From positions 146,400 through 210,399 of the forward strand of contig JAPLXQ010000010.1 of assembly GCA_026395995.1 (NCBI GenBank): a stretch of 64,000 bases of DNA, read 5' to 3'. This DNA is from Candidatus Nomurabacteria bacterium. Lineage in GTDB: Bacteria > Patescibacteriota > Minisyncoccia > Phycocordibacterales > UBA9973. Position numbers and translations under genes: made by a program. Shown here in pieces: positions 13,601 through 52,986 of the stretch. Each line of letters opens with the position of its first letter. Within the stretch, counting starts at the first letter, position 1. The notes beneath the pieces are model-generated. The model was not told the DNA's origin, did not search any database, and worked only from the letters and a program-made list of their open reading frames with translations.

Positions 13601-13796
13601 CTAAAATATACTCGGCTGTTAAATTGATTTGGCTTCGGCTAGATAACAATTTGCCATATAAAGAAACTGCCTGCAATTAATAAAGCATAGATAATTCAGT
13701 TTTGTATTGATGCACCACATTGCTCGTTGTGAAGCGAGATAACTCAGAAAATTTGGAAACAGATTTTCGGTGAAATGGAATATTTATTGCGGTAGA

Positions 13797-13916: not shown

Positions 13917-13917
13917 C

Positions 13918-14262: not shown

Positions 14263-14265
14263 CTT

Positions 14266-15393
14266 ATGGACAACTGGAATATCAAAGTCGTTGGGGGGGG
14301 TGCTAATCAAAGTCTCCTTCATAATATCGTAAGTTTACCAAATTTACTGCAAGCATGGAAGGAATTTAAAAGGTGTAAAAATTCCAAAAAAGACATTGCT
14401 GAATTTGAATTTAATTTAGAAAATAATTTATTTTCCTTGTACAGTAATTTAATAAATAAAACATACATACCAGACCCATACCAAGCATTCTTTGTTTATG
14501 ATCCAAAACGACGACATATACACAAAGCTACAGTCAAAGATAGAGTTTTACATCAAGCTATTTTTAAGATTTTATATCCAATATTTGATAAGCATTTTAT
14601 TTATGATTCTTATTCATCACGCAAAGGAAAGGGAACTCATAAGGCGTCACAACAGCTTTTTATAGTATTAAGGAAAGAGAGCAAAAACTGGCGAGTGCCA
14701 GTTTTTGCTCTTAAGTGTGACATTAGAAAATTTTTTGATTCTGTAGATCACAACATTTTATTTGAGTTAATAAAAAAGAAAATAACAGATGAAGAAACTT
14801 TAACTTTAATTAAACAAATTTTAGATAGCTTTGAAGTTAAAAATAAAATGTTAACAAACTCAGCGATAGCAGAAAGTGTTAACATTTCAAGACGAGGTTT
14901 ACCTCTTGGTAATGTAACGAGCCAGCTTTTTGCAAATATCTACTTAAATGAATTAGATCAATTCGTGAAACATAACTTGAAAGTAAAAAGTTATTTTAGA
15001 TATGCAGATGATTTTGTGTTGCTTTCTAGAGATAGAAAAATTTTAGAAAACTACATATTAGAAATTCAGGATTTTTTAGATAAAAATTTAAAATTACAAT
15101 TACACCCAAATAAAATTTCAATAAGAAAAGTAACACAAGGGATTGATTTTGTGGGATATGTAATTTTACCTGATACAGTGGTATTAAGAACTAAAACAAA
15201 AAAGAGAATTTTTAAAAAGTTAAAAACTGTAAAAGACAAATTAGTTAACAAAAAATCAACTAAAGAAAACTTTAATCAAACTAAAACTTCCTATTTAGGA
15301 ATTCTTACTCATTGTAAAGATAAGGAAATTAAAAGAGGGATAAACAGAATTTTATTGCAATGCTTTATCAATTTTGCCAGTGACCATCAATAG
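14266..15393 (+). CDS. DGR reverse transcriptase
   Basis: RT motifs: PKRRHIHKATVKDRVLHQAI (1/2), ALKCDIRKFFDSVDH (3), motif 4 GLPLGNVTSQLFANIYL with the DGR-specific [ILV]GxxxSQ signature, YADDFVLL (5). The N-terminal region aligns with the Bordetella phage bRT pattern (...YDPKRR.I.KA...DRV.HQAI...IFD..FIYDSY..RKGKGTH.A). G8 homopolymer at 14293-14300. Confidence 0.9.
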   Translation: MDNWNIKVVGGGANQSLLHNIVSLPNLLQAWKEFKRCKNSKKDIAEFEFNLENNLFSLYSNLINKTYIPDPYQAFFVYDPKRRHIHKATVKDRVLHQAIFKILYPIFDKHFIYDSYSSRKGKGTHKASQQLFIVLRKESKNWRVPVFALKCDIRKFFDSVDHNILFELIKKKITDEETLTLIKQILDSFEVKNKMLTNSAIAESVNISRRGLPLGNVTSQLFANIYLNELDQFVKHNLKVKSYFRYADDFVLLSRDRKILENYILEIQDFLDKNLKLQLHPNKISIRKVTQGIDFVGYVILPDTVVLRTKTKKRIFKKLKTVKDKLVNKKSTKENFNQTKTSYLGILTHCKDKEIKRGINRILLQCFINFASDHQ

Positions 15394-18629: not shown

Positions 18630-20120
18630 TTAAATAATATTACTAATTTTTTCGTGTATTCCATCAAAAGATCCATTACTCATTACAACCACTATGTCTT
18701 TTTCTTTGATAGTTCCTTTTAATATTTTTACAGCCTCATCTGCTCCGTTTACACAAAAAGCTTGTTTTGTTTTTGAGATTTCATCAACAACCTTAGTAGT
18801 ATCCATTAGATCATCAGGTATATATCCTTCTTTATGTTTTGGTGTAGAGATTATAACAATATCAGCCGAAGAAAAGCTTTTTTTATATTCTTCTTCAAAT
18901 ATTTTTGATCGACTTGAATTTGATCTAGGTTCAAAGACTGCTATGATTCTATGACCAGAGTATTTATCTTTTATGCCATTTAATGTTTTTTCTACTGCTG
19001 TTGGATGGTGAGCAAAATCATCTATCAAAATTATGCCATTTTTATCAGCAAAAACTTCTTGTCTTCTTTTCATTCCAGAAAAAGAATAAATACCTTTTTT
19101 AATAGACTCTATTTCTAATCCGTACGTTAAAGAAGTTCCAATTACGGCTAAACAATTTAAAATATTATATTTACCAAAAAGGGGAGTTAAAAAGATACCA
19201 TAATCTTTTCCTTTAAAAAAAACCTTGAATTCTTGATAATCATCTTTGATATTTATGTCTTTAGCATAGAGATCAAAATTTTCTGAAAAACCGTATTGTA
19301 GTATTTTTTCATTATCTATATATTCTTCCTTTAAGCTATTTGCTCCAGAATCTTCACCACAAATAAATATATGTCCATCATCTGCTACTTCATCAATTAA
19401 AAATTTAAAAGCATTTCTATAGTCTTCAATATCATTGTAGATGTCTATATGGTCCAGTTCAACAGAAGTTATAATCGCAGTTTTTGGCATATAATGTAAA
19501 AATTTTGGAGACTTATCAAAGTATGAAGTGTCATATTCATCACCCTCTATTATAAAATGTTTAGATTCTTTATTGTAAAAAGCACTATCTTTAGAATCTT
19601 TTAAAACTCCACCTATGAGATAGGAGGGGTTTGTCTCACCTTCTTTGAAAACATGTACCATTATACCTGTAGTTGTCGTCTTACCATGAGTACCCGCTAT
19701 CACTATTGATTCTTTGCTATTTATAAAGAATTGTCTTATAGCTTCAGGCATTGATAACTCTGGTAAATTATTCTCTCTAGAATATTTAGCTTCTATATTA
19801 TCTGGACCAAACATATTGGCTATGATTATTAAATCTTTTTTATTAAGATTTTGCTCATTAAAATCACTAGATATATTTATACCTAGATTTGCTATTATCT
19901 GGTCCATAGGGGGGTAACATGTTTTATCTGATCCTGTAACTTCATAATTGGCATCTCTGAAAAGCTTAGCAAGTGAACCCATGGCTGTACCACATATACC
20001 GGTCAAGTGTATGTTCTTTATTTCATTTATATCTAAAATCGACTCTGTAACATTTCTTTGTTGATAGTCTGGTAGTTTCTTTTTCTTTTCTTCATAGTAT
20101 AATTTTGCCTTTTTTTGCAT
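18630..20120 (-). CDS. Mur ligase family protein (MurC / Mpl-like UDP-N-acetylmuramate-peptide ligase)
   Basis: IHLTGICGTAMGSLA N-terminal Rossmann motif, GTHGKTTTTG P-loop, Mur ligase middle and C-terminal domains. Confidence 0.7.
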   Translation of the reverse strand: MQKKAKLYYEEKKKKLPDYQQRNVTESILDINEIKNIHLTGICGTAMGSLAKLFRDANYEVTGSDKTCYPPMDQIIANLGINISSDFNEQNLNKKDLIIIANMFGPDNIEAKYSRENNLPELSMPEAIRQFFINSKESIVIAGTHGKTTTTGIMVHVFKEGETNPSYLIGGVLKDSKDSAFYNKESKHFIIEGDEYDTSYFDKSPKFLHYMPKTAIITSVELDHIDIYNDIEDYRNAFKFLIDEVADDGHIFICGEDSGANSLKEEYIDNEKILQYGFSENFDLYAKDINIKDDYQEFKVFFKGKDYGIFLTPLFGKYNILNCLAVIGTSLTYGLEIESIKKGIYSFSGMKRRQEVFADKNGIILIDDFAHHPTAVEKTLNGIKDKYSGHRIIAVFEPRSNSSRSKIFEEEYKKSFSSADIVIISTPKHKEGYIPDDLMDTTKVVDEISKTKQAFCVNGADEAVKILKGTIKEKDIVVVMSNGSFDGIHEKISNII

Positions 20121-20178
20121 GTTAGAATTCTAACATAAAAGATAAAATAAAAAAGCCGGAAAATATTCCGGCTTTAGA

Positions 20179-21249
20179 TTAATCAGCATTGAGTCCACAA
20201 TGCTTACAAACAATAATACTTTCTGCGACAGATTTACGGAAATTATACATAGACCCTGGTTTCCTGTGTGGATATACTGCATTAGACAAAATTACTATAC
20301 ATAAATTTTTCTCATAATCTAACATAATAGAACAGCCAGTAAAACCAGTTATAATTAGGGCTCTTTTTGAGAAACAGCTACAAGCACAGTAATCGAGTTT
20401 GAATTTATCCCAGCTTAATCCATAACGGTGATTTTTAATATCGTGAAGTTGATTACTAGTCATATTGTTAAATGTTTTTTCATCTAAAAATCCTTCACCT
20501 CTTTTTAAAATCATTTTTGAAAATTTCATCAAGTCTGGTAATGTTGAGAAAATTCCAGCAGAAGCAACGGTACGAGGTAAAAGCAATCTAGCTGTTTCAT
20601 CGTGCACTAAGCCTCTAAGAGGTTTTCCTGCAACTAATTCTGTCGGGACAATATTACTTTTGTCTTGTGTATCAGGATGAAAGGTTGTGTTGTTCATGTT
20701 TAACGGCAAGAAAAAATCTTTTTCAAGTATTTCCCATAAGCCAGTACCTTTTATTTTTTCAATAAAAAATCCAAGTAGTATTGATGTCGTATTACGATAA
20801 TCAAATTCAATTCCTGGTTGAACCTTTAGGCCAGAATTTAAAATTATTTTTTCAATTTCAGCAGCTTTTAATTTTTGTAAATCTTCCTCAGTGTCCAATG
20901 TTATTGTAAAAGAAAGTAAATGTTTTAATTTTAGCTCATTAACAAATCTTCCTTTAATAGGTAATACGTCTGCTATCTTTGTTTCCAAAGAAATAATGCC
21001 ATCACTTATCATAGAACAAGCATAAGTTCCTACTATTGCTTTAGTAATAGAACTTATGTCCCAAACTGAGCGATTAATATTTATTGCTGGTGAGTGTTCA
21101 TACATTTGATGGCCAAATGCCAATAAATGTTCTTCTTTTTGACTAATTATTCCTATGGTACAACCTGGAAAAATTTTGTCTTCTATGGCTTTTCTTGCCA
21201 AATCGGTTATTTTACCGATATATGCCGGTACTATAGTTTGTGTCTCCAT
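20179..21249 (-). CDS. serine hydrolase of the beta-lactamase / penicillin-binding fold
   Basis: SxxK motif (SISSITK). Cys-rich C-terminus CKHCGLNAD. Confidence 0.55.
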   Translation of the reverse strand: METQTIVPAYIGKITDLARKAIEDKIFPGCTIGIISQKEEHLLAFGHQMYEHSPAININRSVWDISSITKAIVGTYACSMISDGIISLETKIADVLPIKGRFVNELKLKHLLSFTITLDTEEDLQKLKAAEIEKIILNSGLKVQPGIEFDYRNTTSILLGFFIEKIKGTGLWEILEKDFFLPLNMNNTTFHPDTQDKSNIVPTELVAGKPLRGLVHDETARLLLPRTVASAGIFSTLPDLMKFSKMILKRGEGFLDEKTFNNMTSNQLHDIKNHRYGLSWDKFKLDYCACSCFSKRALIITGFTGCSIMLDYEKNLCIVILSNAVYPHRKPGSMYNFRKSVAESIIVCKHCGLNAD

Positions 21250-21314
21250 TTTTTTAAATTACAAGTTTGTTTAAATGTACTTTAACAGTTTTACAAAGAA
21301 AAGGGAAGTAAATA

Positions 21315-26901: not shown

Positions 26902-28212
26902 ATGAATTTTAAAATAGAAAAAAAGTTAGCAAATACTTTAGGCAGAGTTGGAATTTTATCAACTCCACACGGAGATATTTTAACTCCTGCTTTTGTGACT
27001 GTCGGTACGAAGGCGACCGTGAAATCTCTCACACCAGAAGCGGTGAGTGGTGCTGGTGCGCAAGTCGTCCTCGCGAATACTTACCATTTATTTTTACAAC
27101 CAGGGGATGAGGTTGTGGCAAAAGCTGGAGGCCTAGGCAAGTTTATGAATTGGAGTGGTCCTACGATGACAGACTCAGGAGGATTCCAAGTTTTTTCTCT
27201 CGGTGCTGCGTATGGAAAAGATATTTCAAAAGTAGTAAAAATTACTGATCCGTCGCTCATGATTCCTGAGCGTTTCGATGATAGTGATGCACCGCGCCTC
27301 GCGAAGATCGGCAATGATGGAGTGTCTTTCAAGTCGCATCTCGATGGTTCGATTCATTACATCACTCCAGAGAAATCAATCCAGATTCAGCACAACCTCG
27401 GTGCGGATATTATTTTTGCATTTGATGAATGCACTTCTCCGGCAGAGGAGATCAAATACCAAGAAGAAGCTCTCTCTCGCACTCATGCTTGGGCGAAGAG
27501 GAGTTTGGAAGAGCATATAAAATTGGAAGAGGCGAAGAATTTTCTTCCTCCCCTTCGCCAAGGGGAGGACCGAGGTGGGGTGTTGAATCAGCACCCCCTC
27601 CCAACCTCCCCCTTAGCAAAGGGGGAGGAGAAATTCCCCCAAGCCCTCTTCGGCATCGTCCAAGGCGGTCGCGAAGAAGATCTAAGAAAAAAATCCGCGC
27701 AAATTATTTCTGAAATGGAAGTGGACGGCAAGAAATTCGACGGCTTCGGTATTGGGGGAAGTTTTGCAAAAGAAGATATGGCGACAGCGGTAAAATGGTG
27801 CAATGAAATTTTGCCAGAAGAAAAACCTCGCCACCTCCTCGGCATCGGCGAGCCGGAAGATTTATTTATGGGTATTGAAAATGGTGTAGATCTTTTTGAC
27901 TGTGTCATCCCGACCCGCCTCGGCAGAAACGGCACTATCTATACAAAGACAGGGAAGATAAGTATTACAAATACAAAATTCCGTGAAGACTTTACACCAA
28001 TAGAAGCCGACTGTGAATGTTATACTTGTAAAAATTATACCAAAGCCTACATCGCACACCTTTTCCATGGCAAAGAAATGCTCGCGGGTACTTTGGCTTC
28101 TACTCACAACCTCCACTTCATCGTCTCCCTTGTCGCCAACATCCGCCAAAGTATTTTAGATGATAAATTTGAAGAATTTAAGGATGAATTTTTAAATATG
28201 TATAAAGCTTAA
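26902..28212 (+). CDS. tgt: queuine tRNA-ribosyltransferase, carrying an in-frame ~32-aa insertion encoded by a palindromic element
   Basis: TPAFVTVGTKATVK, LFGIVQGG, zinc site CxCxxC...H at the C-terminus. Insert LPPLRQGEDRGGVLNQHPLPTSPLAKGEEK. Confidence 0.9.
   Translation: MNFKIEKKLANTLGRVGILSTPHGDILTPAFVTVGTKATVKSLTPEAVSGAGAQVVLANTYHLFLQPGDEVVAKAGGLGKFMNWSGPTMTDSGGFQVFSLGAAYGKDISKVVKITDPSLMIPERFDDSDAPRLAKIGNDGVSFKSHLDGSIHYITPEKSIQIQHNLGADIIFAFDECTSPAEEIKYQEEALSRTHAWAKRSLEEHIKLEEAKNFLPPLRQGEDRGGVLNQHPLPTSPLAKGEEKFPQALFGIVQGGREEDLRKKSAQIISEMEVDGKKFDGFGIGGSFAKEDMATAVKWCNEILPEEKPRHLLGIGEPEDLFMGIENGVDLFDCVIPTRLGRNGTIYTKTGKISITNTKFREDFTPIEADCECYTCKNYTKAYIAHLFHGKEMLAGTLASTHNLHFIVSLVANIRQSILDDKFEEFKDEFLNMYKA
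27546..27630. repeat. GC-rich compound palindromic element, in-frame inside tgt
   Basis: cctcccc-ttcgccaa-ggggagg / ggggtgttgaatcagcacccc / ctccccc-ttagcaaa-gggggag; same architecture as the uvr copies. Confidence 0.7.
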
Positions 28213-28224
28213 TATAATAAATAT

Positions 28225-28839
28225 ATGGAAATTTTTTTAATTAAAGGTCTAATAATTGGTTTTTCTATAGCAGCTCCTGTCGGGCCTATTGGTATTTTGT
28301 GTATTCAGAGAACCATTAATTATGGAAGAAAATCAGGATTATTCACCGGTTTTGGTGCAGCAACAGCTGACGGTCTATATGGTGCTGTGGCTGCTTTTGG
28401 TTTGACAATTATTTCAAATTTTTTAGTCGGACAACAGTTTTGGTTTAGGTTAATCGGAGGTTTATTTCTGCTTTATTTAGGTATCAGAACTTTTGTGTCT
28501 AAACCAAAAGAAAAAACAAAGAAAGATAACCATAAAAGTTTATTTTCAGATTATTTTTCTACAATTTTTCTTACACTTACAAACCCAATGACAATTTTAT
28601 CTTTTGTTGCTATTTTTGCAGGGCTAGGACTCGGTAGCATAAAAGGAGATACATCATCAGCACTTTTTATGACAATAGGAGTATTTATTGGTTCAGCTAT
28701 TTGGTGGTTAATTTTGAGTGGAGGAGTTAGTCTTTTAAAAACAAAATTTAATACTTCTTCATTAAAAATTGTAAACAAAATTTCTGGAATAATTTTAGTG
28801 ACTTTTGCAATTTTATCTTTTTTAAGTATTTTTAAATAA
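28225..28839 (+). CDS. LysE/RhtB-family amino-acid exporter
   Basis: ~200 aa, 6 TM helices, N-terminal GxxxGFxxAxPxGP motif. Confidence 0.7.
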   Translation: MEIFLIKGLIIGFSIAAPVGPIGILCIQRTINYGRKSGLFTGFGAATADGLYGAVAAFGLTIISNFLVGQQFWFRLIGGLFLLYLGIRTFVSKPKEKTKKDNHKSLFSDYFSTIFLTLTNPMTILSFVAIFAGLGLGSIKGDTSSALFMTIGVFIGSAIWWLILSGGVSLLKTKFNTSSLKIVNKISGIILVTFAILSFLSIFK

Positions 28840-28960
28840 TTTTGTTACGAAAAAATCCTCACTTAACTCTTAAAATTATAGATGAGATATTACCAATGAT
28901 ATTTGACACTAAGTTAGTCTTGTGCTAATTTAAAGATAAATTACAGTTCATCGTATTTAT

Positions 28961-29111
28961 TCCGGATTAGCTCAGCTGGTTAGAGCGCCTGACTGGATAA
29001 GTTTTGTAGATTTAGTAAGTTAGTTCGAAATAATTTATTAAACTCTTTCTTGGTTTACCAAGGCAACCTTATTTTATCAGGAGGTCATGGGTTCAAGTCC
29101 TTTATCTGGAG
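28961..29111 (+). tRNA. tRNA gene interrupted by a ~77-84-nt AT-rich insertion in the anticodon loop. D-arm, variable loop and T-arm resemble tRNA-Ile
   Basis: Acceptor TCCGGAT/ATCTGGA, D-arm GCTCAGCTGGTTAGAGC, anticodon stem CCTGA...TCAGG separated by 84 nt, variable loop AGGTC, T-loop TTCAAGT. The isotype cannot be fixed by eye. Confidence 0.5.
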
Positions 29112-29133
29112 CGGAATATCAAATTTTATTAAG

Positions 29134-29168
29134 AGCACTAAACTTTTTATGTTTAGTGCTTCTTTTTT
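29134..29168 (+). terminator. rho-independent terminator after the tRNA
   Basis: agcactaaac-ttttta-tgtttagtgct then tctttttt. Confidence 0.5.
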
Positions 29169-29200
29169 GTCTTTTTGAGTTAGGACTAATATATAAATAA

Positions 29201-29231
29201 AAAAGCGTTTCAGAAATTTCTGAAACGCTTT
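29201..29231. terminator. perfect 13-bp-stem palindrome, bidirectional terminator
   Basis: aaaagcgtttcag-aaatt-tctgaaacgctttt; it terminates the minus-strand ORF that ends at 29252. Confidence 0.5.
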
Positions 29232-29251
29232 TACAACAAAAATTTGTTGTT

Positions 29252-29551
29252 TTAATTTTGTGGCACAGGCATTGGTACTGCTGAAGTAATAAAACGGTCA
29301 CTAACTTCTCCATTTTCGTGCGCACGACCAGTTTTTGCCTCAAAAGAATCTTTTAATGCTTGACCTAATCTTTTGTACAACTCTAGCTCTGTTTCGTTGT
29401 CGTCACTAGAGATTTCAATACAGTGAACCTCACAATGATTAAGTAGGCCTTCTTGCCCATACAGATCTACTTTTTCTGTAATTGAATTTTTGTAAAAGTC
29501 ATTTAGTTTCACTGTGTAATAGCCACATACTAAAAAATAGAATTTTTTCAT
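29252..29551 (-). CDS. hypothetical protein
   Basis: ORF track only. Confidence 0.3.
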   Translation of the reverse strand: MKKFYFLVCGYYTVKLNDFYKNSITEKVDLYGQEGLLNHCEVHCIEISSDDNETELELYKRLGQALKDSFEAKTGRAHENGEVSDRFITSAVPMPVPQN

Positions 29552-29676
29552 TTTTATTATTGATTTGTGAAAGAGCCATTTCTGGATTTCCGATTAATAC
29601 TGAATTTCTGAATTAGAATTATATTATATACCTTTTATTTAACTTTGTCAATTCTAATTAATTTTGCTATAGTGTA

Positions 29677-31884
29677 TTGGTGTTTAATAATAAATTCAAA
29701 ATCAAATCAGATTTCAAACCAGCAGGCGACCAGCCGAAGGCTATAAAGGCGCTTGTGGAAGGGTTGAAGAAGGGAATGAACAAGCAGACATTGCTCGGGG
29801 TTACGGGTAGTGGCAAGACTTTTACTGTGGCGAATGTGATCCAAAGTATACAGAAGCCGACGCTCATTATTGCGCACAATAAAACCCTCGCAGCTCAGCT
29901 CGCGCAGGAGTTCAAAGAATTCTTTCCGGAAAATGCGGTGCATTATTTCGTCTCCTATTACGACTACTACCAGCCGGAAGCTTACATGCCGACGACGGAT
30001 ACCTATATCGAAAAAGACGCGCAGATCAACAAAGAGATTGATCGTCTTCGTCATGCGTCTACGCAAGCTTTGCTCACGAGAAGTGATGTGATTATCGTAG
30101 CATCGGTGTCTTGTATTTACGGTCTCGGAAGTCCTGAAGAATACAAGGAGGAAAATTTGCATTTAGATGTCGGGATGAAAATGGATAGAAAAGAACTCGT
30201 GGAGAAATTGGTGAAAGTGCATTTCGAGAGGACGAATGCGGATTTGGAGCCGGGGAATTTCCGCGCGATAGGGAACATCATCGAAGTCATGCCGATATCA
30301 GAAACTTTTGTATATCGAATTGAGATTGGAACCCCCTCTCTAAAATCTTCAAATTTTGGAGAGGGGGCGGGGGGTGAGGGGAATTGTATTTCTAGTATCA
30401 CAAAAATAGATCCAGTGTCTTCTAAAATTCTTGCCGAAGAGCAAATGATTTTTATTTTTCCAGCGAAGCATTTCATTACGACGACAAAAGGCAGAGACAG
30501 TGCAATAAAATCTATTAAAAAAGAACTCGCAGATCAGCTCAAGAAATTCGACAAAGAAGGCAAGCTCCTCGAAGCGGAAAGATTAAAGAGGCGCACGACA
30601 TATGACCTCGCGATGATTCGCGAAGTCGGGTATTGTTCTGGAATTGAAAATTATTCTCGCCATTTGTCTGGTAAGGCTGTCGGTGAAGCACCGGAAACAT
30701 TGCTTTCATATTTCCCAAAGGATGCAAAAGGTAATCCTGATTTTTTGACTATCATCGACGAATCCCATGTCTCTATTCCGCAAATCGGGGGAATGTTTGC
30801 AGGGGATCAATCTAGAAAAAATACACTTGTCGAGCACGGTTTTCGTTTACCGAGTGCAAAAGATAACAGGCCATTAAAATTTCCAGAATTTTTAGAACGC
30901 GTCGGACAAATGATTTACACTTCTGCGACCCCGGCAGATTATGAACGAAAAGAAAGTAATCAGATAGTCGAGCAGGTTATCCGTCCGACAGGTTTGCTTG
31001 ATCCTGAAGTAGAAATAAGGCCAATTTTAGCTTCGAGTTCCTTTCCCCCTTCGCTAAGGGGGAAAATGAAAGGGGGTGTTGAATCAGAGCACCCCACCCC
31101 AACCCTCCCCTTGGCGAAGGGGAGGGAGAAATCTTACCCCGGTCAAATTCAAGATTTCATTTCCGAGGCAAAAAAGGAAATCAAAAATGGTCGCCGAGCG
31201 ATTGCGACGACACTTACGAAGAAAATGGCAGAAGATTTATCTGAATATTTAAAGAAAGAGGGAATCAAGGCAGAATATTTACATAGTGATATAAAAACGA
31301 TTGAGAGAATAAAAATTCTGACAGAATTTCGTCGGGGTGCTTTTGATATTATTGTCGGGGTGAACTTACTTCGTGAAGGTTTGGATTTACCAGAAGTTGG
31401 TTTGATAGGAATACTCGATGCCGACAAAGAAGGATTTTTGCGAAGTGAGACGGCACTTATTCAAACTATTGGCCGTGCGGCGAGAAATTCTGCTGGACGA
31501 GTTATTTTATATGCGGACAATATGACAGGTTCGATGGAGCGAGCATTACGAGAGACAAATCGTCGTCGTGCATTACAAATTGCTTATAATAAAAAAAATG
31601 GCATTACTCCTAAAACTATTTTGAAAGCTATCAAAGATATCACACAGGGGATGGATACACTCCATGACAAAGCTGTGCGTTCCGAGCTCGAACTCGATAC
31701 GAAACTTTTTGCAAAGAATCCAAATAAATTAATTAAAATAAAAGAACAAGCAATGAATGAAGCAGTAAAAATGCTCGACTTTGAGACTGCAGCAATCCTT
31801 CGCGATGAGATTAAAATCTTGAAATCTCGACCAGTGCCGGTAGTAGAACCTAAAGGTATTCCTAGGGTAAAGAAGACAAAGTAG
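29677..31884 (+). CDS. uvrB: excinuclease ABC subunit B, with two in-frame palindromic-element insertions
   Basis: GVTGSGKTFT Walker A, DESHVSIPQ, helicase motifs, C-terminal UVR domain (AAILRDEIKILK). Inserts TPSLKSSNFGEGAGGEGNC and SSSFPPSLRGKMKGGVESEHPTPTLPLAKGREKSYP. Confidence 0.92.
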   Translation: MVFNNKFKIKSDFKPAGDQPKAIKALVEGLKKGMNKQTLLGVTGSGKTFTVANVIQSIQKPTLIIAHNKTLAAQLAQEFKEFFPENAVHYFVSYYDYYQPEAYMPTTDTYIEKDAQINKEIDRLRHASTQALLTRSDVIIVASVSCIYGLGSPEEYKEENLHLDVGMKMDRKELVEKLVKVHFERTNADLEPGNFRAIGNIIEVMPISETFVYRIEIGTPSLKSSNFGEGAGGEGNCISSITKIDPVSSKILAEEQMIFIFPAKHFITTTKGRDSAIKSIKKELADQLKKFDKEGKLLEAERLKRRTTYDLAMIREVGYCSGIENYSRHLSGKAVGEAPETLLSYFPKDAKGNPDFLTIIDESHVSIPQIGGMFAGDQSRKNTLVEHGFRLPSAKDNRPLKFPEFLERVGQMIYTSATPADYERKESNQIVEQVIRPTGLLDPEVEIRPILASSSFPPSLRGKMKGGVESEHPTPTLPLAKGREKSYPGQIQDFISEAKKEIKNGRRAIATTLTKKMAEDLSEYLKKEGIKAEYLHSDIKTIERIKILTEFRRGAFDIIVGVNLLREGLDLPEVGLIGILDADKEGFLRSETALIQTIGRAARNSAGRVILYADNMTGSMERALRETNRRRALQIAYNKKNGITPKTILKAIKDITQGMDTLHDKAVRSELELDTKLFAKNPNKLIKIKEQAMNEAVKMLDFETAAILRDEIKILKSRPVPVVEPKGIPRVKKTK
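30331..30381. repeat. GC-rich palindromic element (variant family) in-frame in uvrB
   Basis: ccccctctc-taaaatcttcaaattttg-gagaggggg followed by cggggggtgagggg. Confidence 0.55.
31039..31127. repeat. GC-rich compound palindromic element in-frame in uvrB
   Basis: tccccc-ttcgctaa-ggggga / gggggtgttgaatcagagcacccc / ctcccc-ttggcgaa-ggggag; near-identical to the 33506 and 37543 copies. Confidence 0.75.
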
Positions 31885-31963
31885 TTTCCTTGACTTTTTA
31901 TCTTATACATGCTATTCTTTAATTAGAAATTAATGTACAAATAAACTTAAATTAAAACAAAAT

Positions 31964-32257
31964 ATGAGTGCAGACAATAAAAGTAACATCTTGCAGACAA
32001 AATCTAAAGATGGTGGCTCTGAATTTAGAGTTGAGTGTATCCAAAATTCAGAAAGAATTACAGATAATCCGGATACCAAAGATGGTTTTAACAACGAAGC
32101 CGTTCTTAAAATTTTTGGTGAATCAAAAGTTTTCACTAAAGAATCTGACGCTTGGCGTGAAGCATTCAAAATTGAAGACGAAATGGGTGGTTCGGAGTAT
32201 GGAGCAGTGAGACTTGATTTCTCGCATCTTCCGTTTCCGGAAAAGGTTCTTGTCTAA
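31964..32257 (+). CDS. hypothetical protein
   Basis: ORF track; followed by a terminator. Confidence 0.3.
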   Translation: MSADNKSNILQTKSKDGGSEFRVECIQNSERITDNPDTKDGFNNEAVLKIFGESKVFTKESDAWREAFKIEDEMGGSEYGAVRLDFSHLPFPEKVLV

Positions 32258-32280
32258 AAGTATTGCTGTAAAAAGCAAAA

Positions 32281-32307
32281 GTCCTGTAGTAATACAGGAC
32301 TTTTTTA
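32281..32307 (+). terminator. rho-independent terminator
   Basis: gtcctgta-gtaa-tacaggac then ttttttat. Confidence 0.55.
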
Positions 32308-32390
32308 TTTACTAATATGTGCTATAGTATTCTCACAAATTAATATATAAACCCCAAGGGCAAACCAAGGGGTGTTTCGGAGTTTTGGGT

Positions 32391-32478
32391 TCCTCCTCCC
32401 ATTAGCTAAGGGGAGGAATGAGGTGGGTGTTGAATTTTGCACCCCCTCCCAACCTCCCCCTTGGCGAAGGGGGAGGAG
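32391..32478. repeat. GC-rich compound palindromic element in the uvrA 5' leader, ending 10 nt before the ATG
   Basis: tcctcctccc-attagctaa-ggggaggaa / gtgggtgttgaattttgcacccc / ctccccc-ttggcgaa-gggggag. Confidence 0.7.
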
Positions 32479-32488
32479 AATAAATACA

Positions 32489-35191
32489 ATGAAAAACAAT
32501 AAAGAAGAAAAAATAATAGTGCGTGGAGCTAGGACTCACAATTTGAAAAATATTACTGTGGAAATGCCACGTAATAAGATGATTTGTATTACCGGTATGT
32601 CTGGATCAGGAAAATCATCTCTCGCTTTTGATACTATTTTCGCCGAAGGGCAACGACGATATGTGGAATCTCTTTCTTCATATGCGCGACAATTTCTAAA
32701 ACAAATGGCAAAGCCCGATGTGGATGAAATCGAAGGTTTGAGTCCTGCTATTTCTATTGATCAAAAATCTCGCTCAAATAATCCACGTTCTACTGTCGCG
32801 ACTATTACGGAAGTGTATGATTACCTCCGTGTTTTATATTCTCGTATTGGTAAACCTCACTGTCTCGAATGTGGCACAGAAATAAAAAAACTTTCGAATG
32901 AAGAAATTATGAATTTCGTTAAAGAAAAAGCGGAAAGTTTTTTAGCAAGTGGCAAGAAAAAAGAAGTTATGGGTGTGAATTGGACAGAAGTAAATATTAA
33001 AATTTTTGCTCCTGTCGTGCGTGGAAGAAAAGGGGAATATTATCAATTACTCTATGACTTACTCGGTAAAGGTTATGCGAAAGTTCGCATTAATGGAGAA
33101 ATAAAAAATCTTCGCGATAGAATCGATCTCGCAAAAACAAAGAAGCATGACATTGATGTTTTAGTAGATGAAATAACTTTTCACAAAGTAAAAGACAAAA
33201 GTGAAGATGAAAATATGCGTTTGTTTGAAGCGGTTGAAAGAGCGTTACTTGAAAGTGATGGACTCGTAAGTATCACATACAACGATGTCGAATCAGTTTT
33301 TTATTCTGCGAAATTTTCTTGTCCAAATGATGGCTTTTCTTTCCCAGAGGTAGAACCTCGTCTTTTCTCTTGGAACAGTCCGTATGGAGCTTGTGAGACG
33401 TGTCACGGCCTCGGAACCAAGCATATGTTTGGTGATGACCCTTGTGATGCTTGTAAAGGTTTACGACTTCGCCCTGAAGCTTTACATGTTTATATTGAAG
33501 CGGATTCCTTTCCCCCTTCGCTAAGGGGGAAAATGAAAGGGGGTGTTGAATCAGAGCACCCCACCCCAACCCTCCCCTTAGCGAAGGAGAGGGGGAACTC
33601 AAAGACTTGTCGTATGAACATTATCGAAGCAATCTCACTTTCTGCCGAAGATGCTTTTGAATTTTTCGGTTCATTAAAACTTTCTAAAAAAGAAGAAGAA
33701 ATTTCTGGTGTCTTGATGAAAGAAATTTTGTCGCGTATTGAATTTTTGCTCAATGTCGGTCTCGAATATATTTCTCTCGATCGTCGTGCAAATACACTTT
33801 CAGGTGGAGAAGCACAACGCATCCGCCTCGCTTCACAGCTCGGCTCACGACTCGTGGGAACTTTGTATGTACTCGATGAGCCGACGATTGGTCTACATCA
33901 ACGCGACAATGAAAGACTTATAAAAACTCTCGAAGATTTGCGTGACCTTGGTAATACTATCATCGTTGTTGAACACGACGAAGACACTATTTATGCTTCC
34001 GATTATATTATTGACATCGGTCCAAAAGCCGGTGTGCATGGGGGCAATGTCATTGTCGCAGATGATTTAGAAAAACTTTTATCTGCACCAAAAAATACTT
34101 CAAAGTCTCGCACTCTCGGATACCTCCGTGGAGAAATAAAAATAGAAATTCCAGAGAAGAGACGAACTTCAGAAAAGGGTAGTATAAAAATAGTTGGTGG
34201 AAAAGTTTTTAATATAAAAAATTTGAATGCAGAAATTCCACTCGGCAAACTCGTATCTATCACTGGCGTTTCTGGTTCTGGTAAAAGTTCTTTTATGTAT
34301 GAAATTTTGCATAAAAATTTACAAGGCCGACTCGAGAGAAAATACCGCACGAATGAAGTCTACAACTGCGCGTCATTTTCAGGATCTGAATATATTAGTC
34401 GTGTTGTGCTAATTGACCAATCAGCTATCGGACGCACACCACGCTCGAATTTGGCGACTTATACAGGTGCTTTTACCTATATCCGAGAACTCTTTGCCGA
34501 GACCGAAGAAGCTCGTTTTCGTGGATGGAAATCAAATAGATTTTCTTTTAATGTATCTTCAAAGACTGGTGGGGGACGATGTGAAGCATGTGAAGGTAAT
34601 GGTGAAATAGCTGTTGAAATGCATTTCTTGCCGACTGTGTACGTGACTTGTGATGTGTGTATGGGCAAGCGTTTTGATAAAGAAACTCTAAAAGTAAAAT
34701 ATAAAGGAAAAAATATTTATGAAGTTTTGAAAATGACTGTCGAAGAAGCTTTTACATTTTTCGAAGATATTCCAAATGTGTTTGACCGTGTGAAAACTTT
34801 AATGGATGTCGGCCTCGGCTATGTCGAGCTCGGTCAAAGTGCGACGACGCTCTCGGGCGGAGAAGCACAGCGCGTAAAAATCTCGAGCGAACTCTTTCGT
34901 CCGTATCTAGAAAAAACAATCTACCTACTCGACGAGCCGACTGTTGGGCTTCATTATGATGATGTGCAAAATTTAATTAATGTATTAAATCGCCTCGTAG
35001 ACAAAGGCAACACCGTCGTCGTCATTGAACACAATATGGATCTTATAAAATCTGCGGATTATCTCCTCGACTTTGGTCCTGAAGGTGGTGCAAATGGGGG
35101 AACATTGATTGCAAAAGGAACTCCAGAAGAAGTTGCTAACACTCCGAAAAGTTATACTGGGAAATATCTTAAAAAAGTTTTGAGGAAATAA
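32489..35191 (+). CDS. uvrA: excinuclease ABC subunit A, with an in-frame palindromic-element insertion
   Basis: Start set at ATG 32489 (MKNNKEEKIIVRGARTHNLKN, canonical UvrA N-terminus). Two ABC modules (GMSGSGKSSL, GVSGSGKSS; LSGGEAQR x2), zinc fingers. The longer ORF from 32372 reads through the upstream repeat and is rejected. Insert FPPSLRGKMKGGVESEHPTPTLPLAKERGNS. Confidence 0.9.
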   Translation: MKNNKEEKIIVRGARTHNLKNITVEMPRNKMICITGMSGSGKSSLAFDTIFAEGQRRYVESLSSYARQFLKQMAKPDVDEIEGLSPAISIDQKSRSNNPRSTVATITEVYDYLRVLYSRIGKPHCLECGTEIKKLSNEEIMNFVKEKAESFLASGKKKEVMGVNWTEVNIKIFAPVVRGRKGEYYQLLYDLLGKGYAKVRINGEIKNLRDRIDLAKTKKHDIDVLVDEITFHKVKDKSEDENMRLFEAVERALLESDGLVSITYNDVESVFYSAKFSCPNDGFSFPEVEPRLFSWNSPYGACETCHGLGTKHMFGDDPCDACKGLRLRPEALHVYIEADSFPPSLRGKMKGGVESEHPTPTLPLAKERGNSKTCRMNIIEAISLSAEDAFEFFGSLKLSKKEEEISGVLMKEILSRIEFLLNVGLEYISLDRRANTLSGGEAQRIRLASQLGSRLVGTLYVLDEPTIGLHQRDNERLIKTLEDLRDLGNTIIVVEHDEDTIYASDYIIDIGPKAGVHGGNVIVADDLEKLLSAPKNTSKSRTLGYLRGEIKIEIPEKRRTSEKGSIKIVGGKVFNIKNLNAEIPLGKLVSITGVSGSGKSSFMYEILHKNLQGRLERKYRTNEVYNCASFSGSEYISRVVLIDQSAIGRTPRSNLATYTGAFTYIRELFAETEEARFRGWKSNRFSFNVSSKTGGGRCEACEGNGEIAVEMHFLPTVYVTCDVCMGKRFDKETLKVKYKGKNIYEVLKMTVEEAFTFFEDIPNVFDRVKTLMDVGLGYVELGQSATTLSGGEAQRVKISSELFRPYLEKTIYLLDEPTVGLHYDDVQNLINVLNRLVDKGNTVVVIEHNMDLIKSADYLLDFGPEGGANGGTLIAKGTPEEVANTPKSYTGKYLKKVLRK
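33506..33596. repeat. GC-rich compound palindromic element in-frame in uvrA
   Basis: Same three-hairpin sequence as 31039 and 37543. Confidence 0.75.
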
Positions 35192-35222
35192 AAAAGGAAA
35201 CAACATTGTTGTTTCCTTAATC
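35190..35222. terminator. bidirectional hairpin terminator between uvrA and a small minus-strand ORF
   Basis: ggaaacaacattgttgtttcc flanked by A-run and T-run. Confidence 0.45.
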
Positions 35223-35401
35223 TAAAATCTTGGTTTCCCAAATTCTTTCATTACCCAAGTAAGATGACTTGCTTCTTTATTGCACTTAATTTTACTGCCA
35301 GTAAAGACAGTTTTACCATCTGACCTTTTTACTTCGTGTTTGATAATTTTCTTACCAGAACGACTAAAAATTGGTTTTACTTCATAAGTTATATCTCCCA
35401 T
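35222..35401 (-). CDS. small basic hypothetical protein (59 aa), not in the ORF track
   Basis: My translation of the minus strand: MGDITYEVKPIFSRSGKKIIKHEVKRSDGKTVFTGSKIKCNKEASHLTWVMKEFGKPRF; sits between two terminator hairpins. Confidence 0.3.
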   Translation of the reverse strand: MGDITYEVKPIFSRSGKKIIKHEVKRSDGKTVFTGSKIKCNKEASHLTWVMKEFGKPRF

Positions 35402-35538
35402 TTTTTATTGTTATTAAATTAATACTATTATTTATTTCACTCAATATGATACTATCAAATCTATGCAAAGTCAAGAATTAAAAAAACTCAATATCCCAGA
35501 AAAGCCAGAGGTGTATTTATATAAAATAATAAGCCAGT

Positions 35539-36084
35539 TTGGTGATAGCATACATGGCTTTTGTTTGTTATAATAAAAACATGAAAAAAGAAATTAAAAA
35601 TGGAATTCGTGGCCAGATCTTTGAGCAACTTTCAAAATCACAATTTAAATATAAAGGTGTACCTGTAAATTTCTTTGGTTTACCAACTTTTTGTTCTTCA
35701 AAACCTCGCACACTTGTCTCTAATGAACTTTCAAGAATGAAAAGATTGGGTTTAATTGAGAAGAACGGGGAATTTTTACAAATTACAAATAAAGGCAAGG
35801 ATTACATAAAACGTCGCCAAGAAAGACTTTCTGTTTTTTATTTTACTTTTCAAAAATCTGCACCTAAAAATCTAATAGTCATGTTTGATATTCCAGAAGG
35901 TAAAAAAGCAGAAAGGGAATGGTTTAGATTTCATTTAAGAAGGTTTGACTATATTATGGTTCAAAGGTCGGTATGGGTCGGTCCATCACCTTTACCAAAA
36001 GATTTTCTAAAATATATAGAAGAAATTAATTTAAAGGATTGTATAAAAACTTTTAAACTAGCGAAAGGATATAAACCTCAATAG
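35539..36084 (+). CDS. PaaX-like regulator: winged-helix N-terminus plus Cas2-like (PaaX_C-like) C-terminal domain
   Basis: wHTH-like LSRMKRLGLIEKNGEFLQIT. C-terminus NLIVMFDIPEGKKAEREWFRFHLRRFDYIMVQRSVWVG has the Cas2/PaaX_C pattern. The true start may be the internal Met at 35581. Confidence 0.45.
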   Translation: MVIAYMAFVCYNKNMKKEIKNGIRGQIFEQLSKSQFKYKGVPVNFFGLPTFCSSKPRTLVSNELSRMKRLGLIEKNGEFLQITNKGKDYIKRRQERLSVFYFTFQKSAPKNLIVMFDIPEGKKAEREWFRFHLRRFDYIMVQRSVWVGPSPLPKDFLKYIEEINLKDCIKTFKLAKGYKPQ

Positions 36085-36185
36085 AAAATATACAAGCTTA
36101 CTTTGCTATCGCTATGTTAGCTTATTAGATTAAAATAGTTATTTTTCTAAAAGTTATACTAGAAAATATTTGAAAAAGGTTTTAA

Positions 36186-36216
36186 GGAAATAAAAAAAGG
36201 GAACTTGGTAGTTCCC
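36186..36216 (-). terminator. rho-independent terminator for the minus-strand ORF 36223-36633
   Basis: gggaactaccaagttccc then tttttttatttcc on the minus strand. Confidence 0.5.
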
Positions 36217-36222
36217 TTGAAT

Positions 36223-36633
36223 TTAGATTTTTGCAAAAGCTTTTTTTAGAATTTTCTTTTCATCTTCGTTTCCTTTTAAGGCAATGAATTCCTCGAGTTT
36301 TTTCATTATTTCTAATTCTCTTGTTTTGCATTGCTTGATTTTTTTTATAAAAAATCCTTTAAAACAAAAAATCAAGAAAAATAGTAAGAAAGTTCCCAAA
36401 AATATACTAAATTGTGTAAGTATATTAGGTATGCGTTGGGCGATTAAAAATGCGATTATTCCTGCCACCATAGAAGATGATAAAATACCGAACTTGCTCA
36501 TGATTTTTTCAAAGTTAATCTTTTCAGATTCTTTTATTAAATCAAAAAGTTCTGCACCAACTTTTGTTTTTTTAAGCTCTTCGAGCTCACGTTCTTTGTA
36601 GCCTTCTGCTCGGCCTGTGTCGTACTGATTCAT
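36223..36633 (-). CDS. hypothetical membrane protein
   Basis: Two TM helices in the middle. Confidence 0.3.
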   Translation of the reverse strand: MNQYDTGRAEGYKERELEELKKTKVGAELFDLIKESEKINFEKIMSKFGILSSSMVAGIIAFLIAQRIPNILTQFSIFLGTFLLFFLIFCFKGFFIKKIKQCKTRELEIMKKLEEFIALKGNEDEKKILKKAFAKI

Positions 36634-36738
36634 TTTTTTTGGTATTAAATTGTTTATGTGCAGAAGCTCTAGGACTTCTGCTTGAATTAGTGAAGCAGAC
36701 TAGATGCTTTTATTTAAAATTATGATACTATGTAGCGT

Positions 36739-38118
36739 ATGCAAAGTCAACCCCAAAAAATCGCTCTGCTCTCACGGGGCAGGGAATTAAAAAAAACTAT
36801 ATTACCAGATAAACCCGGTGTTTATTTTTTTATGCGTGGCAAGGATATTTTATATATCGGAAAGGCGACGAGTTTGAGGGATAGAACAAAGAGCTACTTC
36901 GGTAAAGATTTAATAAATACTCGCGGACCGTTGATATTGGATATGGTTTTTAAGGCGGATGGACTGAAGTGGCAGGAGACTGACACCGTTTTGGAAGCGC
37001 TTATTTTAGAAGCGAATCTGATAAAGAAACATCAGCCGTATTACAATACGAAAGAGAAGGATGACAAGAGTTTTAATTATGTTTGTATAACCCGCCCGCT
37101 AACGCCTGAGCGTAGCGATGGCGGGCGGGCTAAAGATGAACTTCCAAAAGTTTTAATTGTTCGTGGTAGAAATCTAAATATACGCCATGGCGTATATTCT
37201 AAAATTTATGGGCCTTTTCCAAATGGCGGGCAATTGAAAGAAGCTTTACGGTTGATAAGAAAAATATTTCCATTCTTGGATGAAAAATCTCGCATTCAGG
37301 GAACGTATGAATTCTATAAGCAGATCAAACTCATTCCAGAACAAAAGGAAATGCTTTTCCAAAATATAAAAAATATTAAACTTCTTTTTGAAGGTAAGAA
37401 AAAATCAATATTAAAAAATTTAGAAAAAGAAATGAAAATGTATGCGAAAGCACATTCGTTTGAAAAAGCAGGGGAAATAAAAAGACAGATTTTTGCCTTG
37501 CAACATATTCAAGATGTGTCGCTGATTAAAGAGGAATTTAATTCCTTTCCCCCTTCGCTAAGGGGGAAAATGAAAGGGGGTGTTGAATCAAAGCACCCCA
37601 CCTCAATCCTCCCCTTGGCGAAGGGGAGGAGGAACTCAAATGCATTTCGCATTGAAGCATACGACATCGCACATATGTCCGGCCAAAATATGGTGGGTGT
37701 GATGGTGGTACTCGAAGATGGTGAAATTGCGAAAAATGAATATAGAAAATTTATTATCAAAGGTTTTACTAATTCAAATGATGTGGGGGCATTGGCAGAA
37801 GTTCTTACTCGTCGATTCAAACACACTGAATGGAGGAATCCTGACTTGATAGTTGTCGACGGAAGTACAGCACAGCTAAATGTCGCAAAGAAAATTTTGA
37901 AAGAATACAAACTAGAAATTCCTATTTCTGCAGTAGTAAAAGACGATAGACATAAAGCCAAGATGATATTAATGCCAAATTCACCTCACCCCAACCCTCT
38001 CCTTGTAAAGGAGAGGGAGAAGTCTCTTAAAAAAGATATATTGCTCTCAAACAGTGAAGCACATCGATTCGCTATTACATACTATCGTCAAAAAAGTAGA
38101 AAAAATATGTTAAAATAA
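36739..38118 (+). CDS. uvrC: excinuclease ABC subunit C (short form), with in-frame palindromic-element insertions
   Basis: GIY-YIG N-terminus (KPGVYFFMRGKDILYIGKATSLRDR), UvrC homology region, RNase-H-like endonuclease domain (RIEAYDIAHMSGQNMVGVMVV). No C-terminal HhH seen. Insert FPPSLRGKMKGGVESKHPTSILPLAKGRRNS. Confidence 0.85.
   Translation: MQSQPQKIALLSRGRELKKTILPDKPGVYFFMRGKDILYIGKATSLRDRTKSYFGKDLINTRGPLILDMVFKADGLKWQETDTVLEALILEANLIKKHQPYYNTKEKDDKSFNYVCITRPLTPERSDGGRAKDELPKVLIVRGRNLNIRHGVYSKIYGPFPNGGQLKEALRLIRKIFPFLDEKSRIQGTYEFYKQIKLIPEQKEMLFQNIKNIKLLFEGKKKSILKNLEKEMKMYAKAHSFEKAGEIKRQIFALQHIQDVSLIKEEFNSFPPSLRGKMKGGVESKHPTSILPLAKGRRNSNAFRIEAYDIAHMSGQNMVGVMVVLEDGEIAKNEYRKFIIKGFTNSNDVGALAEVLTRRFKHTEWRNPDLIVVDGSTAQLNVAKKILKEYKLEIPISAVVKDDRHKAKMILMPNSPHPNPLLVKEREKSLKKDILLSNSEAHRFAITYYRQKSRKNMLK
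37091..37130. repeat. second, different GC-rich palindrome in-frame in uvrC
   Basis: cccgcccgc-taacgcctgagcgtagcgat-ggcgggcggg encodes PLTPERSDGGRAK in an otherwise AT-rich gene. Confidence 0.4.
37543..37632. repeat. GC-rich compound palindromic element in-frame in uvrC
   Basis: Near-identical to the 31039 and 33506 copies. Confidence 0.75.
37981..38020. repeat. half-copy (right arm) of the palindromic element in-frame near the uvrC C-terminus
   Basis: cacctcaccccaaccctctcc-ttgtaaa-ggagaggg resembles caccccaccccaaccctcccc-ttggcgaa-ggggaggg. Confidence 0.5.
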
Positions 38119-41320: not shown

Positions 41321-41692
41321 TTGAAAATACCCTTTTGTTTGTTATTGGCTTGGGTACTCTGTGCATTTTGTGCTCAGAGCACCCAAGCCAAAAGCTCAAA
41401 AACGGGGATAAAAATGAAAAATATATGTATTTTATTATTGAGTATTATCTTAGGAGTACTCACAAGTTGTGATGGTATTCCACAAAATGGTGCACAAATT
41501 ATTTCAGGTAAAGGATCTGACACTCTTAAGATCCCAACCCAGGAGGGAAGTATTATAGAAAGTATTAATAATGTAGGTAATAGTGTTTCTATTAAATACA
41601 AAAATATTACTTCAAATTCTTCCTTTACCAAGGAATATTTTAAAACTGCTTTCATGAGTAAATCAGGAGATCAGTATGTAATTAAATTTTAA
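41321..41692 (+). CDS. small secreted protein / probable lipoprotein (lipobox LTSC if started at the internal Met at 41411)
   Basis: Two in-frame hydrophobic leaders; MKNICILLLSIILGVLTSC fits a lipoprotein signal. Confidence 0.4.
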   Translation: MKIPFCLLLAWVLCAFCAQSTQAKSSKTGIKMKNICILLLSIILGVLTSCDGIPQNGAQIISGKGSDTLKIPTQEGSIIESINNVGNSVSIKYKNITSNSSFTKEYFKTAFMSKSGDQYVIKF

Positions 41693-52984: not shown

Positions 52985-52986
52985 TT

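Follow-up and report, generated by a model that had tools for sequence, protein, structure and literature searches.

GC-rich palindromic elements lying in frame within the tgt, uvrB, uvrA, and uvrC genes of a Candidatus Nomurabacteria genome

INTRODUCTION

In-frame coding palindromes have previously been seen as a curiosity, mainly of Rickettsia. The descriptions of Rickettsia palindromic elements (RPEs) on which we draw (Ogata et al. 2000, 2002; PMC2229807, PMC10969869) give elements of 105-146 bp that lie in frame in conserved genes, and RPE-4 and RPE-6 end in CGTC (PMC3733652). In 2013, Di Nocera, De Gregorio and Rocco reported that repetitive extragenic palindromes (REPs) located inside genes favor those for UvrA, UvrB, UvrC, and UvrD, RecBCD, polymerases, and tRNA modification, and in R. 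conorii such intragenic REPs were found in uvrB (two sites), uvrC, and queA (PMC3733652). CGTC REPs have stems of 8-9 bp and loops of 4-5 nt, with no dedicated transposase known, and REPs of the GTAG and CGTC classes are often head-to-head dimers that encode 20-30 amino acids when they lie inside genes (PMC3733652). Here, we analyzed a 64-kb stretch of DNA (hereafter, the window) from a metagenome-assembled genome of Candidatus Nomurabacteria, together with related loci compared over about 90 kb, and describe GC-rich hairpin elements that lie in frame in the tgt, uvrB, uvrA, and uvrC genes of this bacterium.

Other small hairpin elements offer further points of comparison. In the REPIN/RAYT system and in palindrome-associated elements of the IS200/IS605 type, two inverted hairpins form a larger hairpin that is the mobile unit. 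Both kinds are extragenic and associated with an identifiable tyrosine (HUH) transposase gene; they move without target-site duplication, and their excision can be precise. ERIC and the 107-bp Correia elements are small and non-autonomous, with terminal inverted repeats and open frames, and are occasionally fused to host open reading frames (ORFs) (PMC2229807). In mitochondrial genes of Nematomorpha, coding palindromes form strong hairpins, and some of their positions are common across species (PMC6649704). For the phylum of the present host, we found no report of such elements in the literature.

RESULTS

GC-rich elements in tgt, uvrB, uvrA, and uvrC

The original prediction, made from the nucleotide sequence, described three near-identical copies of about 90 bp in uvrB, uvrA, and uvrC. 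These were confirmed by direct reading, by repeat finding, and by a covariance model. The three copies, designated type 1, are 94-98% identical to one another and are located, like all elements and host genes described here, on the + strand. They lie at 31037-31130 in uvrB (site 3, in the interval between EIRPILA and YPGQIQDF; E = 4.9e-28), at 33504-33600 in uvrA (residues 340-369 of the 900-amino-acid protein; E = 4e-27), and at 37541-37636 in uvrC (site 2, directly before the RNase H-like endonuclease domain; E = 1.9e-27), in each case in frame. A diverged subtype, type 2, is represented by two copies that are 82-88% identical to each other. One of them, at 27542-27632, lies in frame in tgt and adds a segment containing FLPPLRQGEDRGGVLNQHPLPTSPLAKGEE to the protein (E = 1.4e-23). 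The other, at 32390-32480 (E = 6.3e-22), had been assigned to a uvrA leader; the element itself was recovered, but its position is intergenic, 9 nt before the ATG at 32489.

The covariance model, built from eight copies, detected exactly five full copies in the 64 kb, with E values from 1e-22 to 5e-28, and a 24-nt core pattern had three matches in the window against 0.00 expected by chance. The model also recovered the right-arm half-copy that had been proposed near the C-terminus of uvrC (site 3; 37981-38020, CACCTCACCCCAACCCTCTCC TTGTAAA GGAGAGGGAGAA, in frame) as part of a matching region at 37915-38024 (E = 4e-6). The compound palindrome located 3' of rpoD (12613-12691, intergenic), which had been regarded as a degenerate copy, is present and resembles the type-2 right arm, but its membership is only marginal (model match at 12614-12697, 14.5 bits, E = 0.07). 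In addition, a scan for GC-rich hairpins, combined with the comparison of relatives, brought to light two hairpin insertions that had been overlooked. One is a separate insertion of 48 nt net at site 1 of uvrB (30328-30387), with a hairpin CCCCCTCTC...GAGAGGGGG at 30332-30367. The other is a 39-nt GC palindrome in frame at site 1 of uvrC (37093-37134; 37092-37128 in the hairpin scan), CCGCCCGC...GCGGGCGG.

Elements of types 1 and 2 are 85-97 nt long and end in terminal inverted repeats (TTCCTYYCCCC...GGGGRRAGGAA). Their GC content, 0.53-0.58 compared with 0.26-0.42 in 2-kb windows, bears out the description of GC-rich elements in an AT-rich genome. Being small, multi-copy, bounded by terminal inverted repeats, and without coding capacity for a transposase, both types share these features with miniature inverted-repeat transposable elements, or MITEs. 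We considered whether type 2 is an inverted form of type 1 and did not retain this relation; global identity was 70/95 in the direct orientation and 75/94 for the reverse complement, and the orientation is ambiguous, as expected of near-palindromic elements. In the tgt copy, the left 40 nt are closest to the type-1 reverse complement and the central loop is closest to the direct orientation.

Searches of wider collections returned little. The Rfam scan gave no family for the elements, and pattern scans of JGI metagenome DNA and of viral contig DNA, with two patterns each, gave no match. A concatenated insert peptide found nothing in a set of 5.8 billion proteins, whose word index misses such short, biased segments. 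A profile of the insert peptides, run against 1.84 billion cluster representatives, gave one true match, a spurious ORF of 45 amino acids over a type-2-like element; the remaining matches were repeat-protein false positives.

Preservation of the reading frame

Every intragenic copy is in frame and without stops. Three of the six frames of type 1 contain stops, and each intragenic copy lies on an open one; on the + strand only one frame is stop-free, and it is this frame that the three type-1 copies use. Taking the occupied sites together, 24 of 24 preserve the host frame (P about 3.5e-12 if unconstrained) and are free of stops, so the host ORFs do remain open as had been claimed. The encoded peptides, of 13-37 residues, consist mainly of Ser, Gly, Pro, Leu, Lys, and Glu, without Ile and with hardly any Met, Tyr, Cys, or Trp, a composition consistent with flexible loops. 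Since all 24 occupied sites keep the frame, this pattern argues that the inserts are translated rather than removed. Peptides spanning the insert junctions would be, for example, ILASSSFPPSLR or GGVESEHPTPTLPLAK.

Empty sites in relatives and in solved structures

Related loci were collected in two ways. One scan of a genome collection, with a pattern that proved too loose, gave 11 chance matches and two real ones, L005 and L012, which belong to related Nomurabacteria species, and loci L014 to L018 were obtained from look-ups of UvrB homologues. The genes common to the compared loci are those for EF-Ts, S2, an aminoacyl-tRNA synthetase, MreB, MreC, Tgt, UvrB, UvrA, UvrC, and Ddl; among them, indels of at least 8 amino acids were found only in Tgt, UvrA, UvrB, and UvrC.

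L012, which is syntenic and ~90% identical to the window, has the uvrA copy and lacks both uvrB insertions, leaving clean gaps of 90 nt and 48 nt. The site-1 insertion of uvrB is present in the window and L014 and absent from L012, L015, and L016. Likewise, the tgt site is empty in L015, and the 39-nt palindrome at site 1 of uvrC is missing from L014. The UvrA linker is short in relatives at about 80% identity (P0130 and P0131). Among 109 UvrB homologues, the linker at site 3 measures 5-6 amino acids in 67 and 12-50 amino acids in 42.

Alignment with solved structures gave the same picture. In solved UvrB chains, residue 427 is followed directly by residue 428 at the position of residues 451-487 of the window UvrB, and the site-1 insert corresponds to a gap. 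The Tgt and UvrA inserts were also unaligned against solved chains. This alignment was used for placing the inserts in preference to an AlphaFold2 model of UvrB (20-sequence alignment), whose mean pLDDT of 55 was too poor. Thus, the segments of about 30 amino acids are not native parts of these proteins, as the original prediction had held, given the empty sites in relatives and the lack of a counterpart in solved UvrB, Tgt, and UvrA. The element also occurs beyond the window, at the uvrA site of L005 and L012 in other species and in uvrB of the distant L015. These comparisons of sequences and structures indicate that the segments are insertions.

Reuse of the same sites by different families

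The same positions are filled by different sequences in different genomes. Site 3 of uvrB carries type 1 in the window and L015, four unrelated palindromes in L014, L016, L017, and L018, and nothing in L012. The tgt site carries type 2 in the window and other palindromes in L014, L016, L017, and L018. At the uvrA site, type 1 is shared by the window, L012, and L005, family C is found in L014, and family H in P0128. In uvrC, where the window has the type-1 copy at site 2 and the half-copy at site 3, L014 has families D and F, respectively. Just upstream of uvrA, other hairpin elements are found in L012 and L014. The window and L014, with uvrB genes that are 86% identical, differ in family at five of the seven sites.

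Conversely, the same families occur at different positions. Family C occurs in two genes of L014, tgt and uvrA. Family D is found in two genomes, with copies in L014 (uvrC) and L017 (uvrB) that are 98% identical over 48 nt, and so is family F, whose copies in L018 (tgt) and L014 (uvrC) are 92% identical over 51 nt. Family H turns up, depending on the genome, at site 3 or site 2 of UvrB or at the UvrA site. Family D scores weakly against the type-1/2 covariance model (E about 1e-5 to 6e-4), which suggests a broader superfamily. These results indicate, at the level of sequence comparison, that the elements form many families rather than one, and that the same sites are reused by different families. 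The copies turn over fast, by gain, loss, and replacement, and the families are common to diverged lineages of Nomurabacteria and Paceibacteria.

Hairpin structure of the inserts

The type-1 and type-2 elements fold as two similar outer hairpins, with 10-bp stems and 4-nt loops, flanking a central hairpin. The three-hairpin architecture given in the original prediction was supported by pairing in 98% of cells and by seven pairs with compensatory changes, a result reached by 0 of 500 shuffles, and the fold z-scores of the copies ranged from -4.4 to -6.5. The outer hairpins are complementary to each other and pair in the minimum-energy fold, so that folding as a single long hairpin is equally good. 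Across seven sites in seven genomes, nearly all inserts are strong hairpins, most with z between -4 and -9.

When RNA folding was summed over 20 inserts (window and L014 to L018), the antisense strand gave -870 kcal/mol compared with -788 kcal/mol for the mRNA strand. Stronger antisense folding could be due to mutation bias or to selection against strong mRNA structure. In the same inserts, 84 G.U pairs were counted on the reverse-complement strand and 39 on the sense strand; on the mRNA strand, the imperfections of the stems are therefore mainly A.C. Relative to the surrounding DNA in the window and related loci, inserts are ~2-fold enriched in the pentamer AATTC, which is often part of AAAATTC and encodes Asn-Ser. 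The pentamer is mostly sense-oriented and is found in families that are otherwise unrelated; it may be an end or recognition motif that they share, and the enrichment is too weak to interpret.

Divergence of the elements and their host genes

Genomes of different clades are about 70% identical overall, falling to about 48% at third codon positions, which are saturated. For uvrB of the window and L015, the whole gene is 72% identical in nucleotides, 49% at third positions, and 77% in amino acids, compared with 87%, 93%, and 70%, respectively, for the 30 codons of the element. Only two third-position differences occur in these 30 codons (P = 3e-7), and the 50-codon flanks are not elevated. For the uvrA copy compared with L012 and L005, the element is 93% identical at third positions and the gene 77-78%; in amino acids, the element is 87-90% identical and the gene 98-99%. 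This pattern of substitution is therefore unlike that of a protein under purifying selection.

On these figures, the element would be either younger than the split of its hosts or constrained at the nucleotide level. In the former case, it would have been inserted independently at the same site, since the site is empty or differently filled in closer relatives. Nucleotide-level constraint, for its part, is expected for sequences that need to be recognized by a mobilizing enzyme. Taken together, type 1 was probably acquired independently at one uvrB site in two clades.

Host genes and other features of the window

The four host genes are tgt (26902-28212; Pfam TGT, E = 2e-133), uvrB (29677-31884; Pfam, 100% identical to NCBI MCX6755425.1), uvrA (32489-35191; Pfam, 100% identical to P0125 of 900 amino acids), and uvrC (36739-38118; 459 amino acids, with Pfam GIY-YIG, UVR, and UvrC_RNaseH_dom). 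The ATG at 32489 was taken as the true start of uvrA because the annotated homologue is 900 amino acids long. In UvrA, most of the segment that lies between the second zinc-module cysteines of solved proteins is missing (query ~318-383, compared with ~311-455 in the solved chain), and a C-terminal helix-hairpin-helix domain of UvrC was not matched in Pfam. Both repair proteins are therefore reduced apart from their inserts.

Several other features were observed in the region. Between uvrA and uvrC, an insertion of ~1 kb (35196-36197), absent from L005, L012, and L014, is bordered by a direct repeat of 49 nt from the 3' end of uvrA (35147-35195 and 36149-36197; 88% identical) and contains an ORF with a PaaX-central/Cas2-like domain (35539-36084). 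Its appearance is that of a small element that integrated and duplicated its target. An opposite-strand ORF without a Pfam match (36223-36633) lies just 3' of the second copy of the repeat. A tRNA gene at 28961-29111 (+ strand; Rfam, 45.8 bits), missed by ARAGORN, has an AT-rich insertion of ~77 nt in the anticodon loop; this insertion is too short for a group I intron and is not among the GC-rich elements. An imperfect palindrome of 83 nt at 41327-41409 (39-nt arms, 77% complementary), directly upstream of the ATG (41414) of a lipoprotein-like ORF, is also unrelated to them in sequence.

A diversity-generating retroelement occupies 12820-15393. It comprises a target gene (12820-13536) with a variable repeat (13414-13534), a template repeat (13796-13916), a bAvd-like accessory gene (13918-14322, - strand), and a reverse transcriptase gene (14266-15393); 13 of 13 mismatches between the repeats are adenines in the template copy. 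A link between the hairpin elements and this reverse transcriptase was considered, and no evidence for it was found. A GC-rich coding stretch at 51800-54100 (60-nt windows up to GC 0.75, against ~0.30 around it; ORFs 50720-52984 and 52987-54036) may have been acquired horizontally. In L014, a gene for a large serine recombinase with Resolvase and Recombinase domains (19604-21298) is located downstream of tRNA genes, which themselves come after uvrC and ddl; the recombinase gene is absent at the corresponding position of the window and is probably part of an integrated element.

DISCUSSION

We interpret these sequences as selfish, non-autonomous hairpin elements that are translated as loops of their host proteins, as in the case of RPEs, and we put the probability of this interpretation at roughly three in four. 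The elements would be small (about 40-115 nt), GC-rich, non-autonomous mobile DNA built from hairpins, with the plan of the ~90-nt family comparable to that of a REP doublet or a small MITE. Once inserted into the chromosome, intragenic copies would survive only if their length was divisible by three, their frame was free of stops, and they fell in an inter-domain linker that tolerates them. The ribosome would then read through the insert and add 13-37 residues to otherwise canonical Tgt, UvrA, UvrB, and UvrC proteins, presumably with roughly neutral consequences for the host. Mobilization would take place in trans by a hairpin-recognizing enzyme, such as an HUH/tyrosine transposase of the RAYT or IS200/IS605 type. 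The clean empty sites, with neither a target duplication nor a target motif detected, would place the process closer to single-strand transposition of the RAYT/REP or IS200/IS605 kind, in which hairpins are recognized, than to that of cut-and-paste MITEs. The reuse of sites points to some insertion preference besides selection. Random insertion followed by selection is hard to reconcile with the difference in family at five of seven sites between the window and L014, with the probable independent acquisition of type 1, and with the clustering of copies; a preference for particular sites or genes is thus likely, although not proven.

Several observations weigh against this interpretation. No transposase or RAYT-like gene was found in the scanned ORFs of the window or in the called genes of the related loci. 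The junctions of five copies, and filled sites compared with empty ones, gave no consistent target-site duplication or flanking motif, the junctions being blurred by linker divergence. The copies, counted within the 64 kb and not genome-wide, are all intragenic or gene-proximal, whereas classical MITEs and REPs are mostly intergenic. Eight clear copies all fall within 10.5 kb (P about 1.5e-5), a clustering that random insertion does not predict. Furthermore, translation of the inserts is deduced from the reading frame rather than observed.

A more tentative reading, possible rather than probable, is that these are site-preferring ("homing-like") mini-elements that would target a few conserved linkers in excision-repair and tRNA-modification genes and spread horizontally among co-occurring lineages of the candidate phyla radiation. 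It is suggested by the occurrence of the same element at the same uvrB site in two lineages that are saturated at silent sites, with closer relatives empty or occupied by another family. The difference in family at five of seven sites between the window and L014, and the confinement of all clear copies to four genes, point in the same direction. If true, homing-like behavior would give a mechanistic basis for the association of intragenic palindromes with UvrABC that was reported across phyla in 2013.

The hairpins might instead benefit the host at domain boundaries, with some hairpin being kept by selection whatever its sequence, and the roles proposed for them are translation pausing for co-translational folding, signaling of mRNA stability or processing, and protein-binding DNA within repair genes. 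Such a benefit would fit the presence of unrelated hairpins at the same inter-domain positions in many genomes, the compensatory changes that preserve base pairing, and conservation at the nucleotide rather than the codon level, as well as the element upstream of uvrA, which abuts the start codon and contains GGAGGAG in its 3' arm. We nevertheless consider it unlikely. Empty sites are common, both in the majority of the UvrB homologues surveyed (67 of 109) and in close relatives such as L012 and L015; the summed RNA fold of the 20 inserts is stronger antisense than on the mRNA strand; and near-identical copies in three genes are better explained by copying than by independent origin. The 94-98% identity of these copies within one genome also makes it very improbable that the segments are native hypervariable linkers evolving in place, through slippage or quasi-palindrome correction, without being mobile. 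Although the positions tolerate length variation and the inserts differ greatly among relatives, the same families recur in different genes of diverged genomes, and similarity between lineages is far higher for the element than for the silent sites of its host gene.

Removal of the inserts on the way to the protein, either as small introns or through translational bypassing, has precedents in gene 60 of phage T4 and in the GC-rich "byp" elements of yeast mitochondria. The inserts are likewise GC-rich and structured in an AT-rich genome, and the tRNA gene with the ~77-nt anticodon-loop insertion raises the prospect that some RNA splicing activity may exist. However, the occupied sites are without exception multiples of three, stop-free, and on open frames only, a constraint that would be needless if the inserts were removed; Rfam gave no intron match. 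With the frame constraint present and 13-37 residues too short for an intein, neither intein, intron, nor bypass is a good description, and we give removal only a very slight chance. Slighter still is the chance that the inserts are artefacts of metagenome assembly or binning. All sequences are indeed metagenome-assembled, and palindromes can cause misassembly, but the same uvrA insert was recovered in three independent assemblies from different projects, and the inserts lie within intact genes on contigs of 35-287 kb with the frame always kept.

A diverse, fast-turnover set of such elements in bacteria of the candidate phyla radiation suggests that in-frame coding palindromes occur more widely among small, AT-rich genomes. 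The bias toward excision-repair and tRNA-modification genes, with tgt belonging to the queuosine pathway, recurs in unrelated phyla. Related genomes with filled, empty, and differently filled sites constitute a natural experiment on the rates of insertion and excision, on the mobilizing enzyme, and on the effects on repair proteins, and the question of why UvrABC genes are hit is directly testable in this group. In practice, the inserts add to protein lengths and give rise to spurious GC-rich ORFs on the opposite strand, and they can also mislead the annotation and alignment of candidate-phyla-radiation genomes.

Comparison with known systems

The likeness to RPEs that had been noted from the sequence holds, in that the elements are palindromic, multi-copy, in frame, and situated in linkers of conserved proteins. 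Like RPEs, they are multi-copy palindromes with terminal inverted repeats, forming a long stem-loop and fused in frame into conserved protein genes. They also share with RPEs the presence of several families per genome, some intergenic copies, a reduced AT-rich host genome, and inserts that are presumed to be tolerated at surfaces or linkers. By contrast, the present elements are 40-115 nt long and GC-rich, compared with 105-146 bp for RPEs, and their host belongs to Candidatus Nomurabacteria of the candidate phyla radiation and not to the genus Rickettsia. Here, moreover, one site can hold different families in sister genomes, and diverged lineages have copies in common. The comparison with RPE-1 to RPE-10 is one of description and not of alignment, and homology to them is not demonstrated.

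Intragenic GTAG and CGTC REPs, with their preference for UvrABC and tRNA-modification genes, are a closer match in behavior than RPEs. They are short GC-rich stem-loops (stems 5-13 bp, loops 2-20 nt), often inverted dimers, and the window elements have these features. However, none of GTAG, CTAC, CGTC, and GACG was found in any type-1 or type-2 copy; the present elements thus lack the GTAG or CGTC tag, have an extra central hairpin, and come from a host phylum outside the 2013 study. As would fit REPIN/RAYT and IS200/IS605 systems, empty sites are clean and no duplication was detected, but the present elements are intragenic or gene-proximal, and no RAYT (Y1 HUH transposase) was found among the scanned ORFs of the window. 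ERIC and Correia MITEs differ in having TA or other target duplications and in being mainly intergenic; no duplication was detected here, and the viral and metagenome pattern scans yielded no related sequence that could represent a parent insertion sequence with the same termini. The coding palindromes of Nematomorpha similarly form strong hairpins within translated coding sequence, but both of their arms encode conserved native residues, and they are perfect and kept in place rather than belonging to dispersed families.

The behavior of the present elements is therefore already known from Rickettsia and some other bacteria, and the host phylum is new for it. The published descriptions do not extend to site reuse by multiple families, to families shared among lineages, or to the evidence from silent sites.

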